Shown piece after piece: positions 3,458 to 32,838 of a stretch of 64,000 bases of DNA. The number at the start of each line of letters is the position of its first letter. Within the stretch, counting starts at the first letter, position 1. Below the pieces are notes generated by a model. That model worked only from the letters and a program-made list of their open reading frames with translations, was not told the origin of the DNA and searched no databases. This DNA is from a phage: assembly GCA_024572335.1 (NCBI GenBank), contig GCA_024572335.1_3052.1. The stretch is one strand, 5' to 3'. The position numbers and the translations under genes are program-made.

Positions 3458-3572
3458 ATTTTACCCTTAATTGATTAACCAAGCATTGATAAGCACTAAA
3501 CTATATTGGGAATAAAATTCTGGACCAAAATGAAAAATCATATCATTTATAGTATCCATAATGTAATTCAGT

Positions 3573-4043
3573 TTAATCATGTTTCCACACCCCATCGGTA
3601 TTTGACCAAAGTCGCTGATTATCTGATCCTCGCCACAGCTTTTTGGTCGGAAGATTTTTCTCATACTTCCCATCAATAATAACATCAACATATTTAAGCA
3701 TTTCTAGTTGTTTAATATCTTCAAACTTATATCCTGTCCACAACCAAATGCTTTTATTGGGATAAAGATTTTTAACTGTTTGAACGATGCAATGAATCAC
3801 GTCTCTGTTATCAGGATAAAGAGGGTCACCTCCGGTTATAGTTAATCCTTCTATATAATCATTATTCAAACATTCAATTAATTGTTCTAGTGTTTCACCA
3901 GTGAATGGAATACCATTTCTAGCATTCCATGTTGATTTATTATAACACCCTTCACATTTATGCAAACAACCTGTAACGAAAAGAACGGTCCTGCAGCCAG
4001 GACCATTAACAAAATCGCAAGGATAAAATCTATCATAATTCAT
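3573..4043 (-). CDS. nrdG: anaerobic ribonucleotide reductase activating protein (radical SAM)
   Basis: 156 aa; CxxxCxxC cluster motif (CLHKCEGC); ATGA overlap with nrdD stop. Confidence 0.9.
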   Translation of the reverse strand: MNYDRFYPCDFVNGPGCRTVLFVTGCLHKCEGCYNKSTWNARNGIPFTGETLEQLIECLNNDYIEGLTITGGDPLYPDNRDVIHCIVQTVKNLYPNKSIWLWTGYKFEDIKQLEMLKYVDVIIDGKYEKNLPTKKLWRGSDNQRLWSNTDGVWKHD

Positions 4044-5857
4044 TGGTGCTTAACCCTATGCATGATTTCTTTATTTTTGCCGAGATTAAATCCGCGTTCG
4101 TTCGGATTTCCAAGATAGCCGCATGTTCTTCTTATTGTGTTCATCTTTTTAGGATCAGTTTCTCCACAGATAGAACAAACAAATCCGTTTTCAGTAGGAG
4201 TCATTTCATGGGTGCTTCCGCATGTAAAACATTTATCTACTGGCATATTAACACCAAAATAATCTAAATGTTGTGCAGCATAATCCCATACAGCCTCAAG
4301 GCCTTTTAGGTTATTTTTCATATCAGGAAGTTCAACATAAGAAATGTGACCACCTGTCGCAATGAAATGATATGGCGCTTCACGAGAAATCTTTTCAAAC
4401 GGAGTAATATTTTCTTCTACTGAAACATGGAAACTGTTAGTGTACCATCCTTTATCGGTAACATCTTTTACACTTCCATATTTTTCTGTATCAAGTTTAC
4501 AGAAGCGATAACAAAGGTTTTCAGCAGGAGTCGAATACAAACTAAAAGCAAACCCAGTTCTTTCAGCCCACTGTTTAAGACGAGCATTCATTTTAGTTAA
4601 AATTTCTTGTCCAATGTCACGACCGACAAGAATATTCAATTCATGAATACCAATGTATCCTAAAGACACTGAACTTCTACCGTTTTTAAATAACTCAATT
4701 ATGTCGTCATCAGGTTTAAGACGAACCCCGAATGCACCTTCTTGGTAAAGAATAGGAGCAACAGTAGCTTTAACTCCTTTTAAGGAACTAATTCTACACA
4801 TCAAAGCTTCAAAACACAAATCCATACGTTCATTGAATAATTCAACAAATTTCTGTTCATTGAACTGTGTTCCAATATAAGAATCCAACGCGATGCGAGG
4901 AAGATTCAGTGTTACAACACCAAGATTATTACGTCCATCAAGAATTTCATTACCAGTCGAATCTTTCCATACGCTCAAGAAACTACGGCAACCCATTGGA
5001 GAAACAGGAATAGATGAACCGGTGATAGCTTTATTATTCTTAACTGAAATAATATCAGGATACATCCTTTTGCTTGCACACTCTAGAGCAAGCTGCTTAA
5101 TATCATAGTTCGGATCGTCTTTATAAAGATTAACGCCTTCTTCAACGAACATAACAAGTTTAGGAAAAATAGGAGTTATCCCATCACGACCAAGACCTTT
5201 AATACGATTTTTCAGAATTGCTTTCTGAATCATTCGTTCAGTCCAGTCAGTTCCCGTACCAAATGTAATTGTTACAAAGGGAGTCTGTCCGTTTGAACTA
5301 AAGAGAGTATTTACTTCATATTCATAAGCTTGGAATGCATCGTATACGTCTTTTTCTGTTTTAGATTGGGCATAATTCAGTGCATCGGCGATTTGCCATT
5401 TTTCTGCGTCCTCGATATGTTTTGCATAGGTGCGTTTAACATAAGGAGAAAGTACTTTATCTACATTCGCAAAAGTCGTTCCGCCGTATTGGTGAGAAGC
5501 AACCTGTGCGGTAATTTGTGCCATAATTGCAGTAGCAACGCCAATTGATTTAGGAGTTTCAATCTGTGCATTACCAAGCTTAAATCCGTTTTCAAGCATT
5601 CCTTTTAAATCTACTAAACAACAATTAGTAAATGGAAGAGCAGGGGAATAATCAATATCATGGAAATGAATAATTCCGCTTTCATGCGCTTTCATAATAA
5701 AAGACGGGACCATATTTTTGGCAATGTGTTTAGACACAATACCAGCCATAAGGTCCCGTTGAGTTGGAAAAACACGAGAATCTTTATTAGCATTCTCGTT
5801 TAAAAGGTCTTTATTAGTTTTATGAATCAATCCTTCAATTTCTTTTTCAATTGTCAT
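4040..5857 (-). CDS. nrdD: anaerobic ribonucleoside-triphosphate reductase (class III, glycyl radical); uninterrupted
   Basis: 605-aa continuous ORF; C-terminal zinc-ribbon CxxC...CxxC and glycyl-radical region; nrdD-nrdG-49 synteny. Confidence 0.93.
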   Translation of the reverse strand: MTIEKEIEGLIHKTNKDLLNENANKDSRVFPTQRDLMAGIVSKHIAKNMVPSFIMKAHESGIIHFHDIDYSPALPFTNCCLVDLKGMLENGFKLGNAQIETPKSIGVATAIMAQITAQVASHQYGGTTFANVDKVLSPYVKRTYAKHIEDAEKWQIADALNYAQSKTEKDVYDAFQAYEYEVNTLFSSNGQTPFVTITFGTGTDWTERMIQKAILKNRIKGLGRDGITPIFPKLVMFVEEGVNLYKDDPNYDIKQLALECASKRMYPDIISVKNNKAITGSSIPVSPMGCRSFLSVWKDSTGNEILDGRNNLGVVTLNLPRIALDSYIGTQFNEQKFVELFNERMDLCFEALMCRISSLKGVKATVAPILYQEGAFGVRLKPDDDIIELFKNGRSSVSLGYIGIHELNILVGRDIGQEILTKMNARLKQWAERTGFAFSLYSTPAENLCYRFCKLDTEKYGSVKDVTDKGWYTNSFHVSVEENITPFEKISREAPYHFIATGGHISYVELPDMKNNLKGLEAVWDYAAQHLDYFGVNMPVDKCFTCGSTHEMTPTENGFVCSICGETDPKKMNTIRRTCGYLGNPNERGFNLGKNKEIMHRVKHQ

Positions 5858-24535: not shown

Positions 24536-25009
24536 TTATTTGAACGATTTAACGTACTGAATAGAACCCTTACTATTCACAAAGGCAATTTTACCATTTT
24601 TATTATACATGGTAGCAGTACGCTGATAACCATAGGTTTGTTTACCAGATTGATAACCAACTAATGCAAAATTATCTTCACCCATTTTATTCTGTTTAGC
24701 GCGAATGCGTTCATGACCATGTGCCATAAGAACCTTAGCATCACCAGTTGCAATGGATCGACGAGTTTTTTCATCTTCAACTGCATTAACAAAGTCGTCA
24801 AATGAATCAAATTTAGCATGAGATTTATTATACAATTTTCCATCTACTGCATAATTATATCCCTGTACATCCATCTCAACTTCTGTACCATCATCCAATA
24901 CAGCAGTAATTTTTTGACCTTTTTTAAATTTCAAAAGATCAGTAAAAGATTCAGCAATAATTTGAGAATTAATAGCTGCTTCAGTGATAAATTCTTGATA
25001 TGTTTTCAT
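24536..25009 (-). CDS. internal-protein-like head protein with capsid targeting sequence
   Basis: N-terminus MKTYQEFITE|A matches the T4 IP leader MKTYQEFIAE ending at a gp21 cleavage site; early promoter 25064-25093. Confidence 0.7.
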   Translation of the reverse strand: MKTYQEFITEAAINSQIIAESFTDLLKFKKGQKITAVLDDGTEVEMDVQGYNYAVDGKLYNKSHAKFDSFDDFVNAVEDEKTRRSIATGDAKVLMAHGHERIRAKQNKMGEDNFALVGYQSGKQTYGYQRTATMYNKNGKIAFVNSKGSIQYVKSFK

Positions 25010-25063
25010 GGGTTTCCTTTAAATATTTTAATTAGTAATTTGTCTCTTCAAGCAACTGTGAAT

Positions 25064-25093
25064 ATACTATCACAATTCTAGGAGAAAGTAAAC
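25064..25093 (-). promoter_or_regulatory. early promoter upstream of the IP-like gene
   Basis: GTTTAC (25088-25093) - 18 bp - TAGTAT (25064-25069). Confidence 0.5.
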
Positions 25094-25097
25094 AACT

Positions 25098-26066
<969 letters not shown>

Positions 26067-26070
<4 letters not shown>

Positions 26071-26555
26071 TTTAATTTCCTGCATTCAGTGATAAAGTTA
26101 TTTAAATTTTGAGTGTATTTCTTTTCATCAAAAATCTTTTGCTGTCTGCGTAGCCGCCATGGCATTTCAATGAACACGCACCATATCCCAGATAATATTG
26201 CTGCAGTAAAAATATTAACAAGTATGGTTAAAAGAATCCAATCTCCTATTCTGTCCATTGGATTTTTTATAAAAAAGTAAAATACGAATGATGTCACAGG
26301 AAGACTAATAATATACCACAGAATCATAATTTTATCTGTGAACCAATCAGCGTTCGTTAACTTAGCGCGACCATTATGAATACACACGAATTTATCATCT
26401 GTTATAATAGATGGCTTAGCTGCTTGATATCCCATTCTAAACTCACTAATCAACAAATTTTTCATATCTTCGGAACAACCATTCCAGTCAACTCTATCAA
26501 CTGAAATGCCATCATCCCCATCATCTAAATCATACCAGCGAGTTTTTAAAATCAT
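26067..26555 (-). CDS. membrane protein (162 aa, 2 TM)
   Basis: hydrophobic segments IMILWYIISLPVTSFVFYFFI and WILLTILVNIFTAAILSGIWCVFI. Confidence 0.45.
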
Positions 26556-26914
26556 TTAATTTTCCTACAATCACTCACAAACTCTTCCATTGATTCTTTT
26601 TCAATATAAGACATGTAGCTATTATATTCCTTTAATTGTATTTTGTAATCTTTTTTTCTTTGCCAATTTATTTTAAAATTATCATAATGAAAATATAACA
26701 TGGTACCAAAGAATGAAAATAATGAAATAATTTTAGTATAGTGAAGTTCACTCCAAACTTCTATTATATTTACTGTGCCGTCAATGTTTAAAATAAGACA
26801 GTCAATTAACAATCCAAAAAGACTACCCGCAAGAGCTGCAGCCAACGCTACAGCAAAAATTAAAAATGACTCAGGAAGAGAATATTTGACTTTATTTAGT
26901 TTTGGCTTTTGCAT
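26552..26914 (-). CDS. membrane protein (120 aa, 2 TM)
   Basis: hydrophobic segments FLIFAVALAAALAGSLFGLLIDCLIL and IISLFSFFGTMLYF. Confidence 0.45.
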   Translation of the reverse strand: MQKPKLNKVKYSLPESFLIFAVALAAALAGSLFGLLIDCLILNIDGTVNIIEVWSELHYTKIISLFSFFGTMLYFHYDNFKINWQRKKDYKIQLKEYNSYMSYIEKESMEEFVSDCRKIK

Positions 26915-27309
26915 CGTGATTCCTTAACAAATTTCATAATTTCATCAAATTCATGCGCAGCAAGTTTAAGCTGATGTTCCTTTTTAATCTTTTTACACTG
27001 AGCTTTCCAATCACGTACACGTTTACGATAGTGTCTTCCTTGATACCAATATCCTATCCAATTTATAGGTACTAATAAAAGCGGAACTACCAATGGAAGA
27101 ATTAGTGTTGCTCCAAATATTGCACCAGATTCAATATCAGTCATAACGTCTATAACTATTCCAGCAATCAACAGAATCACAAATGATACGGCTACCACAG
27201 GACCTATTAACACATCAGTAGAAATTATCTGACGCTTTAATTCATACTTTAAGGGTTTACTTGGAAGATACATTGATGGCTTTGACATATTCTCTACATT
27301 CCTTAACAA
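26896..27309 (-). CDS. membrane protein (about 130 aa, 2 TM); start uncertain
   Basis: hydrophobic segments LIGPVVAVSFVILLIAGIVIDV and IFGATLILPLVVPLLLVPINWIGYW. Confidence 0.45.
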   Translation of the reverse strand: MLRNVENMSKPSMYLPSKPLKYELKRQIISTDVLIGPVVAVSFVILLIAGIVIDVMTDIESGAIFGATLILPLVVPLLLVPINWIGYWYQGRHYRKRVRDWKAQCKKIKKEHQLKLAAHEFDEIMKFVKESRCKSQN

Positions 27310-27862
27310 ATTTTTCTAATAATAAATCGCTTTCAAAATTAGGATTTTCCACGAATTTATCAAAAAGATCATCGACAACAGTTAAGATATTCTTTTTATT
27401 AAGAATACGCTTATTTTCATATTTTGTTTCAGAGTCAACTATAAGAGTAAAGAAATATTTCTTTCCCTGAAATTTTACCGTAGTATCAATATAGAACAAA
27501 TTTGACTTTTGTAAATTACGTTTAAACCATGCGTCACTTAAACTGTAAACGCCAAGATAATCATAATCGTCATTTAAATAACAAACTGTCCATTCAGGAG
27601 AAATGAAATCAGTAAATTCAACATCAAAATCACACGTCAATGAATGAATTGATTCAATACTTTTAATGAGTATTCCAGGACGTATTAAAGACTTTTTACC
27701 TTTATAAAATCCAGAAAGACTTTCATCAGTTTCGTATGAAGACCCCCAATAATAATTACGTCCTTCTGCCATATGTTTAAGAGCATTTAGTAATTGATCT
27801 GGAACATCAACCTGTCTTTGGAACTCTTCAAACATTGAATTGAAATCACTTTGCATTTTCAT
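27257..27862 (-). CDS. hypothetical protein (201 aa)
   Basis: ORF. Confidence 0.45.
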   Translation of the reverse strand: MKMQSDFNSMFEEFQRQVDVPDQLLNALKHMAEGRNYYWGSSYETDESLSGFYKGKKSLIRPGILIKSIESIHSLTCDFDVEFTDFISPEWTVCYLNDDYDYLGVYSLSDAWFKRNLQKSNLFYIDTTVKFQGKKYFFTLIVDSETKYENKRILNKKNILTVVDDLFDKFVENPNFESDLLLEKFVKECREYVKAINVSSK

Positions 27863-27903
27863 TCCTATTTACTCCAAGTAATAGGGGCCGAAGCCCCTTA
27901 TCA

Positions 27904-28497
27904 TTATTTCAGAGAATTAATATATTCCTGAACATCGGCAGAGGTAGTTTCAACCCCAGAAATATTGCCATTAAAGGTTTCAACTCGGGCAAGAGTATCT
28001 TCAATATCAACCTTAGTCAGCGCTGCAATTTCAACTACATCATCAGCAGTACTAATTCCGAGGGCATTCGCGGCGCGAGTTTCACGGATATATTCCAATT
28101 TAACTGCAAGTTCTTGGCGAGCATCATCTAACTCAACTACTTTCTTGGCGATTTCAATTCGCATTTCAGCATAACCATCAGCTTTAGTAGTCAACTGCTC
28201 AGCTGTTCGACGATATAGTAAACCAAGTTTAGCATGCATTGTTACATCTTGACCTTCCGAAAGAAGCTTGCGAATTTCACGCTCTTTTGATTCGGCCTGC
28301 TTATTCTTTTCGACAATAAGTTCACGAATACGCTTTTCTTCATTAATAGATTTAACAGAAGCAGTTTTTAGATCTTTAATCTTATCAAGTAGTTTTGCTG
28401 CTGCAGCAGTATACTGTTCTTCAACAGATAGATTTTTAGCCATAGCAGAACCAAGTTTAGTGCGAATAAACTCAACAATTTTCTTCAGTGTGTTCAT
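27904..28497 (-). CDS. coiled-coil protein, possibly PspA/IM30-like
   Basis: 197 aa, predicted all-helical; weak resemblance to PspA ([37 protein letters not shown]); early promoter 28542-28571. Confidence 0.35.
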
Positions 28498-28541
28498 AGC
28501 ATTTCCTTTAGTTAATTAAGGGTTTTATAATCCGTGGGAGT

Positions 28542-28571
28542 ATTATACTCTACTCCCAAGAGTTTGTAAAC
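28542..28571 (-). promoter_or_regulatory. early promoter with -10 embedded in an inverted repeat
   Basis: GTTTAC (28566-28571) - 18 bp - TATAAT (28542-28547); inverted repeat gggagta/tactccc at 28536-28557. Confidence 0.55.
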
Positions 28572-28904
28572 TTATTCTTCGTCCAATTCATCAATAAATT
28601 TATCGATACTACTATTAATAGACTCATCGATGATTAACAAAGCATCATCATCTATAATATTAATATTTTCTAAAGCATCAATATAAGCTTGATTGACTAT
28701 AGACCATGCCCTTTGAAAATATGGGGTTTCATCATCAGGACTGAACCAACGTACACCTTCAAAGATACGTTTAGCATAATCCAACACCCATTGTACAGGC
28801 ATGTTTTGAGAGCGTTCATTAAACTCTTCAAAGTCCTTAGATTCAAAAAGCTCTTCAGGATAATAATTTCTATTACAAAAAGCTTTACTAAAGTTACGTT
28901 TCAT
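28572..28904 (-). CDS. hypothetical acidic protein (110 aa)
   Basis: ORF with GAGGAGAA SD; early promoter 28931-28960. Confidence 0.45.
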   Translation of the reverse strand: MKRNFSKAFCNRNYYPEELFESKDFEEFNERSQNMPVQWVLDYAKRIFEGVRWFSPDDETPYFQRAWSIVNQAYIDALENINIIDDDALLIIDESINSSIDKFIDELDEE

Positions 28905-28930
28905 AATGTTCTCCTCAAAGTTATAGGCTC

Positions 28931-28960
28931 ATAATATCTCAATCATGAGCCTGTGTAAAC
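28931..28960 (-). promoter_or_regulatory. early promoter with -10 embedded in an inverted repeat
   Basis: GTTTAC (28955-28960) - 18 bp - TATTAT (28931-28936); inverted repeat aggctcat/atgagcct at 28925-28952. Confidence 0.55.
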
Positions 28961-29224
28961 TTATTTCATATTATTGAAATATTCTTCAGCAATTTCATCA
29001 TTATCATGATAAACTTTAGAAGACAGTTTAACATAACTTTCAGCAGTGAACATGTTAATCACAACCTTTACAGTATACCACTGACCATCTTCATTACCCA
29101 TTACTGCGTAAGTTTCAAACAACGGATGATCAGGACCGATAACTTTAATATCATTCACTGTACGACCGAAATCTTCTGAAACACATTTCATAAAGAAGTT
29201 GAACAGTTCGCCGTAATTATCCAT
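28961..29224 (-). CDS. hypothetical protein (87 aa)
   Basis: ATG 29222-29224 (complement) after GGAGAA SD; ORF-track start at 29287 would lie inside promoter 29268-29297. Confidence 0.45.
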   Translation of the reverse strand: MDNYGELFNFFMKCVSEDFGRTVNDIKVIGPDHPLFETYAVMGNEDGQWYTVKVVINMFTAESYVKLSSKVYHDNDEIAEEYFNNMK

Positions 29225-29267
29225 TTCGTTCTCCAAGTTGTTTTCTGTATCAGTAGTTGATAGTTGT

Positions 29268-29297
29268 ATAGTACCATGGAAGGACAAGGATGTAAAC
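29268..29297 (-). promoter_or_regulatory. early promoter
   Basis: GTTTAC (29292-29297) - 18 bp - TACTAT (29268-29273). Confidence 0.55.
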
Positions 29298-29440
29298 CGT
29301 TTTGTGAAAAAATTTTTAAAAAGTTTTGGGGAATTCTAGGGCAGGGAGGGGAAATCAAAGGATAGGATAATATATTATAAAGGGTAGAAACTAAATGATG
29401 TCTAGAGAGGCCTGGAAAGGCCTAGATACCAAAAAGCCCC

Positions 29441-29467
29441 AACCTTTCGGCTAGGGCTAAGAATGTT
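29441..29467 (-). terminator. intrinsic terminator, copy B of a duplicated 31-bp element
   Basis: minus-strand GCCCUAGCC-GAAA-GGUUGGGGC + UUUUU; one substitution relative to 29986-30012. Confidence 0.65.
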
Positions 29468-29939
29468 ATTTGATTTGTTTAGCAGACCAAATGCGGTCTT
29501 TAATAATTTTTTGGATGTCTTCAACATACTCAAGAGAGTGAGCATGTGGGTTATCTTTGAAACTATAAGCACGAGCTAACTTTTGACCTTCAGTTTTGAT
29601 TACTAAAAGCTCTTTAAGGATAGCTTCATATTTGGAGATAATTCCTTTAACAATATTTTTCTCTTGTGCGACTTTAGGATCTGCTTTAGGAGCAGGTTTA
29701 CCCGAAGCCTTTGCAAAAGCAGCGCCAGTAGCAACTAAACTTTTCCAGGCCATACTAACTGCATTTCCCGTAAATCCTTCTGCTTTCATGTCGCGAGCAA
29801 ATTGGAATCGTGATTCATCAGAAGCATCTTTATAGGAATATTTACCCGCTGCAATGGCTGCTTTTGCGACAGCTTGAATTTCGGTGCTAGACGCTTCATT
29901 TAACACCGCTTCATTTAAAAATTGAGTATATGATTTCAT
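29466..29939 (-). CDS. candidate packaged internal protein with variant capsid targeting sequence
   Basis: N-terminus MKSYTQFLNE|A (variant of MKTYQEFIAE); own TATAAATA late promoter 29976-29983 and AGGAAA SD; flanked by duplicated terminators. Confidence 0.6.
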   Translation of the reverse strand: MKSYTQFLNEAVLNEASSTEIQAVAKAAIAAGKYSYKDASDESRFQFARDMKAEGFTGNAVSMAWKSLVATGAAFAKASGKPAPKADPKVAQEKNIVKGIISKYEAILKELLVIKTEGQKLARAYSFKDNPHAHSLEYVEDIQKIIKDRIWSAKQIK

Positions 29940-30693: not shown

Positions 30694-30770
<77 letters not shown>

Positions 30771-30777
30771 TATTTTG

Positions 30778-30849
30778 CGGACGTGATAGGATTCGAACCT
30801 ATAACCAATCGCTTAACAGGCGATCGCTCTGCCATTGAGCTACACATCC
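30778..30849 (-). tRNA. tRNA-Asn (anticodon GUU)
   Basis: acceptor GGATGTG/CACGTCC, anticodon arm ATCGC-CTGTTAA-GCGAT, T-loop TTCGAAT; no encoded CCA. Confidence 0.75.
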
Positions 30850-30853
30850 AAAT

Positions 30854-30940
30854 TGGTGGGGAGTGGTGGAGTCGAACCACCCGAGTCGCAATGACAATGA
30901 ATTTACAGTCCACACCGCTACCTCTACGGGATAACTCCCC
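30854..30940 (-). tRNA. tRNA-Tyr (anticodon GUA), class II with long variable arm
   Basis: acceptor GGGGAGT/ACTCCCC, anticodon loop CTGTAAA (as in E. coli tRNA-Tyr), T-arm GGTGG-TTCGACT-CCACC, CCA; D-arm atypical. Confidence 0.6.
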
Positions 30941-30949
30941 AAATTAATT

Positions 30950-31024
30950 TGGTGGCCCTGGGTGGAATTGAACCACCATCTGGCGATTATGAGTCGCTTG
31001 CTTGAACCTTCCAGCTACAGGGCC
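30950..31024 (-). tRNA. tRNA-Ile (anticodon CAU, probably lysidine-modified, AUA-reading)
   Basis: acceptor GGCCCTG/CAGGGCC, anticodon stem-loop GCGACTCATAATCGC resembling E. coli ileX, CCA encoded. Confidence 0.75.
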
Positions 31025-31025
31025 T

Positions 31026-31101
31026 TGGTGCTGATTAACGGAATCGAACCGCCGACCTTCTCATTACAAGTGAGTTGCTCTACCTACTGAGCTAAATCAG
31101 C
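31026..31101 (-). tRNA. tRNA-Thr (anticodon UGU)
   Basis: acceptor GCTGATT/AATCAGC, anticodon loop CTTGTAA, T-loop TTCGATT, CCA. Confidence 0.8.
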
Positions 31102-31106
31102 AAAAC

Positions 31107-31196
31107 TGGCGGAGGCGATAGGATTTGAACCTATGAGTCGCCGGAGCGACTGCCGGTTTTCAAGACCGGTGCATTAAACCACTCTGCCACGCCTCC
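31107..31196 (-). tRNA. tRNA-Ser (anticodon UGA), long variable arm
   Basis: acceptor GGAGGCG/CGCCTCC, anticodon arm CCGGT-CTTGAAA-ACCGG, T-loop TTCAAAT, CCA. Confidence 0.8.
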
Positions 31197-31198
31197 AG

Positions 31199-31273
31199 TC
31201 TCCATACAAGGATTTGAACCTTGGACCTCCTGATCCCAAATCAGGCGCTCTACCAAACTGAGCTACACGGAGT
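31199..31273 (-). tRNA. tRNA-Pro (anticodon UGG)
   Basis: anticodon arm CCTGA-TTTGGGA-TCAGG, T-arm CAAGG-TTCAAAT-CCTTG; 2 nt from tRNA-Ser; no encoded CCA. Confidence 0.75.
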
Positions 31274-31282
31274 AAATTAAAT

Positions 31283-31356
<74 letters not shown>

Positions 31357-31361
31357 AAATT

Positions 31362-31448
31362 TGGTGCGAGAAGTGGGACTCGAACCCACAAGGAAATCAT
31401 TCCGCAGCATTTTAAGTGCTGTGCCTTTACCAATTTGACCATTCTCGC
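31362..31448 (-). tRNA. tRNA-Leu (anticodon UAA), long variable arm
   Basis: acceptor GCGAGAA/TTCTCGC, anticodon arm CAGCA-CTTAAAA-TGCTG, T-loop TTCGAGT, CCA. Confidence 0.8.
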
Positions 31449-31449
31449 G

Positions 31450-31522
31450 CTGGGAATAAAGGACTCGAACCTTTGCATCCTGGAATCAAAATCCAGTGCC
31501 TTACCAACTTGGCTAATTCCCA
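31450..31522 (-). tRNA. tRNA-Gln (anticodon UUG)
   Basis: acceptor TGGGAAT/ATTCCCA, anticodon arm CTGGA-TTTTGAT-TCCAG, T-loop TTCGAGT; 1 nt from tRNA-Leu. Confidence 0.8.
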
Positions 31523-32553: not shown

Positions 32554-32838
32554 TTACAAAAGATTTTTAGCAATAATTTTAAGCTGAGCTACTGAAATAT
32601 GCTTGGCTTTAAACAAAGCAGTTTCTTCAGCAGGGGAGATAACGATTGTAGCACCATCTTTCTTAGCGGACCATCCATCACCCAGGTAAACAGTACCTTT
32701 GACTTCTTCGCCATCAACCAGGCTAATCATCGGTTTACCTTCACGTCCTTTGTTTGCTTTAATAACTTCAGAAGTAAGGGTCGCTTCAGTCAAAGTAGAA
32801 GCGTTAGTGGTTGAAGTGAATTCTTGATAAGTTTTCAT
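32554..32838 (-). CDS. internal-protein-like head protein with capsid targeting sequence (ipI-locus position)
   Basis: N-terminus MKTYQEF...LTE|A; gene sits upstream of 57B as T4 ipI does; early promoter 32869-32898. Confidence 0.65.
   Translation of the reverse strand: MKTYQEFTSTTNASTLTEATLTSEVIKANKGREGKPMISLVDGEEVKGTVYLGDGWSAKKDGATIVISPAEETALFKAKHISVAQLKIIAKNLL

Follow-up and report, generated by a model that had tools for sequence, protein, structure and literature searches.

A probable PspA homologue and a shared C-terminal tail in the e.2–e.6 gene cluster of T4-like phages

What do the genes e.2 to e.6 do for T4-like phages? The five open reading frames (ORFs), which take their names from the annotations of phages AR1 and T4, occupy positions 26067–28497, all on the minus strand, of the 64,000-nucleotide (nt) stretch of phage DNA analysed here (contig GCA_024572335.1_3052.1), hereafter the window. 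The window is that of a Tequatrovirus: its positions 25000–29000 share 98.8% identity with Shigella phage ESh31 and 96% with phage AR1, and a search with this segment returned 676 matching phage records. In T4, the genes from e.2 to e.8 all have early transcripts, and their products have been detected by proteomics or mass spectrometry (PMC9697503 supplements); all are scored 'Not Fit' in CRISPRi-ART knockdown and were still classed as of unknown function in 2025 (PMC11879866 supplements). The e.2–e.6 block is expressed early and is dispensable in the laboratory. An original prediction had described the cluster as a membrane-acting module, and we judge that description supported by the PspA homology of e.6, the transmembrane (TM) segments of its partners, a C-terminal tail that the partners share and the inheritance of such genes as a cassette. 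That e.2–e.6 form one functional module is, in our estimate, probable; the explanation that best covers the whole locus, for which we put the chances at even, is a diverged phage PspA with tail-docked partners that protect the membrane.

The e.6 gene (27904–28497; msp3 in the old record L13089.1) encodes a protein of 197 amino acids (aa) that belongs to phrog_1203 and is 100% identical to T4 e.6/msp3. Comparison by hhalign of 54 e.6 homologues with 24 PspA/Vipp1 sequences gave 94.7% probability and P=6e-8 over 167 columns, aligning e.6 1–175 with PspA 1–170. The reference alignment was built solely from database sequences; the E. coli PspA and Synechocystis Vipp1 queries were checked against database proteins carrying PF04012. 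Order-destroying controls scored far lower than the real pair (49.8), at 17.5–18 when reversed, no more than 22 when column-shuffled and no more than 29 when shuffled in 14-column blocks. The register held when the families were partitioned: the most distant e.6 subgroup matched Vipp1 alone at 93.7% (2e-7), and distant subgroups matched PspA alone at 59–64% (about 1e-4). The subgroup close to T4 was weak, reaching 17.8% with Vipp1 and giving no match to PspA, and e.6 was missed when hhalign compared a PspA profile with window ORFs taken one sequence at a time. With HMMER, an e.6 profile searched against the Protein Data Bank (PDB; 177,635 sequences) found Vipp1 chains in co-linear alignment, query 4–143 to chain 4–145, at E values of 1–2.7.

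Structure prediction pointed in the same direction. An AlphaFold2 (AF2) model of e.6 from a 31-sequence alignment was all-helical, with a predicted local distance difference test (pLDDT) score of 75 overall and 85–97 in the hairpin, and comprised alpha0 (residues 3–22), alpha1 (25–80), alpha2/3 (86–145), alpha4 (151–172) and alpha5 (186–196). This predicted succession of alpha0, hairpin, alpha4 and alpha5 is that of Vipp1 and PspA, in which alpha0 spans residues 1–22 and the hairpin residues 24–142 (PMC8281802). Foldseek comparison of the model with the PDB placed Vipp1 in eight of the top ten matches, followed by archaeal CdvB2 (E values 3e-3 to 1e-1), and in BFVD the family members were followed by matches that included a Megaviridae Snf7 and a PspA/IM30 protein of Acinetobacter phage ME3. 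At the N terminus, residues 2–19 have a hydrophobic moment of 0.45 (PspA, 0.42; Vipp1, 0.57), a value reached by 5.9% of shuffles, and the two helices predicted there (3–14 and 16–22) have a pLDDT of about 40. Identity to E. coli PspA is about 13%. A Kuttervirus protein of phrog_1203, labelled 'shock protein A' in GenBank, had already been reported as PspA-homologous by HHpred, with a proposed anti-abortive-infection role in preventing loss of the proton-motive force (PMC9409062, 2022). Because the sensitive tests converge with that result, we regard homology of e.6 to PspA as very probable, and as not new for the family; in the literature searched, we found no source for a link between T4 e.6 and PspA. 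The all-helical, weakly PspA/IM30-like protein of the original prediction is borne out by hhalign (the comparison with PspA/Vipp1 having been its suggested check), by HMMER against the PDB, by AF2 and Foldseek, and by the published HHpred result.

The genes downstream of e.6 are tied to it by a similar C-terminal ending. It is present in e.5 (…LLEKFVKECREYVK…; LEKFVKECR, aa 182–190, nt 27293–27319), in e.3 (…SMEEFVSDCRKIK; MEEFVSDCR, nt 26564–26590), in e.2 (LNNFITECR, nt 26079–26105) and, in degenerate form, in e.4 (…EIMKFVKESRCK…; IMKFVKESR, nt 26914–26940), all on the minus strand, and the same ending occurs on ORFs behind e.6 in Aeromonas phage 65, RB43 and PEi20. Its consensus, [L/F/I]-[E/N/D]-x-F-[I/V]-x-x-C-[R/K], follows a charged stretch, with 0 to 25 residues between it and the stop codon. 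We defined a strict tail as [FW][IVL]xxC[RK] within the last 35 residues and examined 40 e.6 loci from IMG/VR. In 12 of 14 non-redundant lineages the first ORF after e.6, a soluble one, carried it. Of the 117 ORFs whose starts fall within 3.5 kb downstream, 33 had the tail, versus 5 of 243 elsewhere on the same strand (Fisher 3e-13). A relaxed tail, with Y allowed at the first position, was found on 121 downstream ORFs, 1 upstream ORF and 6 ORFs of the opposite strand; at least one such ORF was present in 35 of 37 full loci (median 3, maximum 5). In one Gualtarvirus seven tail-bearing ORFs follow one another at e.6. Across the 22,653 ORF residues of the whole window the strict tail occurs three times, each time at the C terminus of e.2, e.3 or e.5.

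The bodies that carry the tail are diverse. With their tails removed, 126 proteins fell into 26 clusters unrelated by BLAST, about half of them two-TM hairpins and half soluble. The tail codons vary synonymously (Cys, 53 TGT and 50 TGC; Arg, all six codons; Phe, 71 TTT and 28 TTC), and the F, C and R positions are therefore conserved at the level of the protein. A by-product of Shine–Dalgarno sequences or of overlapping gene junctions was considered as the source of the tail and rejected, given the synonymous variation and a stop distance of 0–25 residues. The linkage to e.6 is also kept where e.6 lies elsewhere in the genome, beside gene 31 in Aeromonas phage 65, between nrdD and nrdG in RB43 and CfP1, and with a relocated e.6 in a Providencia phage. 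The tail family is not described in the literature searched, nor in the Pfam, PHROG and NCBIfam libraries.

The e.6 protein itself has a conserved C terminus, V-x-E-Y-[IL]-x-S-L-K (…VQEYINSLK), with a spacing equal to that of the tails. The two genes upstream, e.7 (28572–28904) and e.8 (28961–29224), both on the minus strand, encode small acidic proteins with similar ends, …IDKFIDELDEE and …AEEYFNNMK, and a generalised tail pattern is matched by exactly the seven consecutive genes from e.8 to e.2 and by no other of the 148 ORFs in the window (0.56 expected). We treat this extension to e.6, e.7 and e.8 as a lead and do not claim it, because the pattern was drawn up post hoc and upstream ORFs elsewhere fit it inconsistently. 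A second C-terminal-motif family was seen in the hyperplastic region of non-T4 Tevenvirinae: at five loci (L011, L012, L022, L025 and L031; about 7.5–9.3 kb in locus coordinates), arrays of three to six ORFs of 65–110 aa lie beyond the tail-bearing ORFs, all ending in W-[VI]-S-S-S-x-x-C or W-x-P-S-S-C (…GAWVSSSEMC, …GGWVSSSMEC, …KIWYPSSC). This family is absent from the window.

Relatives of e.6 also occur outside Straboviridae, in Ackermannviridae. The Salmonella phages Mooltan and Marshall, of Kuttervirus, have flanks that are at least 98% identical, and Marshall lacks exactly positions 3458–4889 of Mooltan (1.43 kb), a block consisting of an e.6-like gene and its two TM ORFs (span 3489–4894). 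The PspA-like gene and its membrane neighbours therefore move as one cassette.

Next, we consider the partner proteins, with TM segments called by Kyte–Doolittle hydropathy. The e.2 gene (26067–26555; phrog_2203) encodes, in its intact allele, a 162-aa protein in which a 75-aa N-terminal domain is followed by a hairpin of two clear TM helices (about 76–97 and 102–132). The 120-aa e.3 protein (26552–26914; phrog_2330) has a long, strong hydrophobic segment (11–48) and a weaker one (62–76), and the 130-aa e.4 protein (26896–27288; phrog_2604) is a two-TM hairpin (about 27–55 and 63–88) with an acidic loop between the helices and a basic C-terminal tail. Basic residues flank the hairpins, and by the positive-inside rule we infer an N-in/C-in topology with cytoplasmic C-tails. 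Neither e.5 (27257–27862; 201 aa; phrog_2607) nor e.6 has a TM segment, and a single-sequence AF2 model of e.5 was unusable (pLDDT 41.5). The original prediction had given each of the three small proteins two hydrophobic helices and named a lack of TM helices as what would count against it; TM-like segments are present in all three, two per protein in e.2 and e.4 and one strong plus one weak in e.3, and e.5 is soluble, as it had said. With Pfam, e.3 and e.4 had no match and e.2 matched DUF2269 alone, at E=0.03. None of these three shows homology by Pfam or NCBIfam to PspB (PF06667), PspC (PF04024) or LiaI/LiaF, to which they are analogous in context only, and none matches the T4 superinfection-exclusion and immunity families Imm and Sp in Pfam or PHROG. 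For the five proteins together, PADLOC models, consulted because defence effectors are often small TM proteins, gave no match at E<=1, and Pfam and NCBIfam scans gave nothing significant. In PHROG each of the five falls into its own family at E<=1e-60, none of them with a known function; phrog 2203, 2330 and 2604 are labelled unknown or 'membrane protein', and the e.2 family is filed under 'moron, auxiliary metabolic gene and host takeover'.

These PHROG families, the early transcripts and the mass spectrometry in T4 indicate that the five ORFs are real genes and not chance. All five exist on the minus strand as first delineated, save that e.4 had been extended to the TTG at 27309. Its start is instead the ATG at 27288, which gives 130 aa: this is the start annotated in T4 and AR1, and the PHROG match covers residues 8–137 of the longer ORF. 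The best promoter-like site in positions 25000–29600, a sigma-70-type early promoter for e.6 (28542–28570, minus strand; TTTACA-17-TATAAT, 11/12 match), coincides with the –35 and –10 elements annotated for msp3 in T4 record L13089.1. The 41-nt gap between e.6 and e.5 is filled by a hairpin (27883–27898, minus strand; GGGGC-UUCG-GCCCC, with a C(UUCG)G-type tetraloop), listed as a 'putative stem_loop' in L13089.1; the coding strand shows no run of T behind it. Beyond it, e.5, e.4, e.3, e.2 and nudE overlap successively by 4 to 32 nt (e.5/e.4, e.4/e.3 and e.3/e.2 by 32, 19 and 4 nt). The hairpin may act as an mRNA stabiliser or attenuator, and e.6 would then be produced in excess over its translationally coupled partners.

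Several observations concern the partner genes and their surroundings. The annotated T4 e.2/msp7 (102 aa; L13089.1 2927–3420) is a frameshifted copy of the 162-aa window gene: at 92% nucleotide identity over 490 nt, the second TM helix and a FITECRKLK tail can still be read in its +2 frame. The frameshift could be a mutation of the laboratory strain or an error in the reference sequence. Downstream of e.2–e.6 lie nudE and the lysozyme gene e, and upstream lie e.7, e.8 and a tRNA cluster. The annotated nudE start (ATG 26085) falls within the Glu-Cys codons of the e.2 tail, an overlap of 19 nt (26067–26085); a second in-frame ATG five codons on stands behind an AGGAAA Shine–Dalgarno sequence formed by Arg-Lys codons of e.2, and the true nudE start may therefore be this downstream ATG. 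In an IMG/VR relative (L007, 6636–7251) whose e.6 is 98% identical, e.5 is split into ORFs of 145 and 92 aa, the second of which carries the tail, e.2 is absent and e.3 abuts nudE; partners thus appear to be easily lost or broken while e.6 stays intact. Upstream of e.8–e.2, ten tRNA genes (30694–31522, minus strand; Arg, Asn, Tyr, Met, Thr, Ser, Pro, Gly, Leu and Gln) make up a content unlike that of the annotated AR1 stretch, which includes tRNA-His. Three further minus-strand ORFs (24536–25009, 29466–29939 and 32554–32838) begin MKTYQEF… or MKSYTQF…, the first of them at the position of AR1 Ip4. We take this type of N terminus to resemble the sequence by which T4 internal head proteins are targeted to the capsid, and several variable internal proteins may accordingly flank the e cluster.

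We propose that e.6, made early from its own strong promoter, would be a cytoplasmic protein of helical-hairpin form, able to polymerise on the inner membrane by way of a putative N-terminal amphipathic helix, as PspA or Vipp1 does, and that the polymer would stabilise the inner membrane and keep up the proton-motive force during infection. The soluble e.5 and the N-in/C-in membrane hairpins e.4, e.3 and e.2 would each present a cytoplasmic tail, a tag that may let them dock on one shared partner, in the simplest case e.6, much as PspB/PspC or LiaI recruit PspA or LiaH. That the tails dock on e.6 specifically is a tentative idea, to which we give less than even chances. The tail might mimic the C-terminal helix of e.6, as alpha5 of Vipp1 and ESCRT-III attaches to a neighbouring subunit at its hairpin tip (PMC8281802) and the spacing is the same. 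The benefit would be protection of the membrane and the proton-motive force, for example against abortive-infection systems that depolarise the membrane, as proposed for the Kuttervirus protein (PMC9409062), or against superinfection damage.

A number of results weigh against this proposal. Curated models are silent on e.6: PF04012 matches neither e.6 at E<=1 nor any of 31 homologues at E<=10 (Pfam scans of these gave coiled-coil noise only), and the NCBIfam PspA model TIGR02977 does not match e.6 at E<=10. The HMMER profile of e.6, run against 1.84 billion representatives, returned just 45 proteins, each about 200 aa long, with no PspA of cellular origin among them. Beyond the homology, the e.6-like genes of Ackermannviridae have TM neighbours that lack the Cys-Arg (CR) tail; in the tail-bearing loci the tail ORFs reach as far as 5 kb downstream and are intermingled with small ORFs of other families; and the Cys-Arg pair, being invariant, may point to some chemistry (metal binding, modification or recognition) over a plain contact between helices. 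It could accordingly be that the tails are real and have nothing to do with e.6, a mere syntenic neighbour in a hyperplastic accessory region. The tail might then be a signal for a host protease, chaperone, insertase or the Psp machinery, a means of hetero-oligomerisation among the tail proteins, or a degron. We think this unlikely, since the linkage is extremely tight and polar and is kept through relocation of e.6 to three genome neighbourhoods, and the first ORF after e.6 nearly always bears the tail despite an unconserved body.

The homology evidence also serves a reading in which e.6 is PspA-like but a decoy or manipulator, acting on PspF, PspB/C or host membranes so that the envelope-stress response is disabled or hijacked; in a variant, e.6 and the TM proteins remodel the inner membrane for superinfection exclusion, lysis timing or DNA-entry sites. 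Early expression, at the time when host-takeover functions are made, and the PHROG category of the e.2 family would fit, and in E. coli it is well established that PspA also regulates PspF negatively (see the summary in PMC9409062). The family, however, occurs in phages of hosts that have classical PspF systems and of hosts that lack them (for example Aeromonas, Acinetobacter-type relatives and Erwinia), the low identity to E. coli PspA leaves no evident mimicry of the PspF-binding surface, and the TM proteins belong to neither Imm nor Sp; we rate this reading distinctly improbable. Least probable of all, in our view, is that e.6 is a generic coiled-coil hairpin with a convergent or compositional PspA signal and that e.2 to e.5 are unrelated accessory genes forming no module. 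Order-dependent controls abolish the hhalign signal, independent partitions of both families give the same register, Foldseek searches of two libraries and an HMMER search of the PDB all lead to Vipp1, PspA and Snf7, and the HHpred result of PMC9409062 is independent; the shared tail and the cassette indel in turn argue against unrelated neighbours.

A diverged phage PspA with tail-docked partners would draw on known parts: a PspA-type effector with membrane partners is familiar from Psp and Lia, and a phage homologue of phrog_1203 is in print (PMC9409062). What appears to be new is its generality across Straboviridae, T4 included, and the tail-tagged 'adaptor' family. PspA, Vipp1 and ESCRT-III act as universal machines of membrane repair and remodelling, and a T4 version would make the purpose of a phage PspA testable with existing genetics. 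Because many abortive-infection effectors depolarise or perforate the inner membrane, a phage membrane stabiliser would amount to a general counter-defence, an idea already put forward for one Kuttervirus. The tail offers a handle on at least seven T4 ORFans (e.2–e.5 and relatives), a nine-residue target for mutation and a simple rule for annotating more than 100 hypothetical Straboviridae proteins. At its boldest, and here we are speculating on something we consider doubtful, the tag would be a plug by which dozens of unrelated, fast-evolving proteins, both membrane hairpins and soluble domains, dock on a viral ESCRT-III/PspA-like polymer, perhaps through mimicry of its alpha5 helix, to counter membrane-targeting immunity. 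If true, T4-like phages, the best-studied of phages among them, would carry a modular, diversifying platform for membrane repair or remodelling, a viral ESCRT-III with its own adaptor code.

Several known systems can be compared with e.6 and its partners. With PspA/Vipp1 (IM30, PF04012; the bacterial ESCRT-III branch) e.6 shares the core length, the hairpin numbering and short C-terminal helices (predicted in e.6), it may share an amphipathic helix at the N terminus, and its most conserved block, THAKLaLLYRR, aligns with the LAReALxRKk signature just past the hairpin turn. It differs in an identity of about 13–17%, below the reach of curated hidden Markov models, in lacking the AEDP motif between alpha0 and alpha1, in an alpha2/3 that is roughly 10 residues shorter, in having no alpha6 and in its origin, an early gene of a lytic phage. 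The Kuttervirus SeF3a protein Gp_125, 'shock protein A', likewise belongs to phrog_1203 and adjoins a membrane protein, but its partners lack the CR tail, and PMC9409062 regarded it as peculiar to a single Salmonella phage, without a link to T4 e.6, Straboviridae or the partners. Eukaryotic and archaeal ESCRT-III, with its MIM–MIT contacts and the swap of alpha5 onto the hairpin tip, offers the idea of a short docking C-terminal helix or peptide, a likeness drawn post hoc; in the phages the motif is on the partners and not on the ESCRT-III-like protein, and the cluster has no Vps4 or MIT protein. Alike in overall design are PspA with PspB/PspC in Enterobacteria and LiaH with LiaI in Bacillus. 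Unlike these, the phage cluster has no PspF-like regulator, and its partners come from at least 26 unrelated families, soluble and membrane-bound, interchangeable and unified by the nine-residue tag alone. As in Psp and Lia, a soluble PspA-like protein and small membrane proteins with cytoplasmic tails are encoded in one transcription unit, and the proposed logic is the same, with membrane proteins that would recruit or regulate the polymer.

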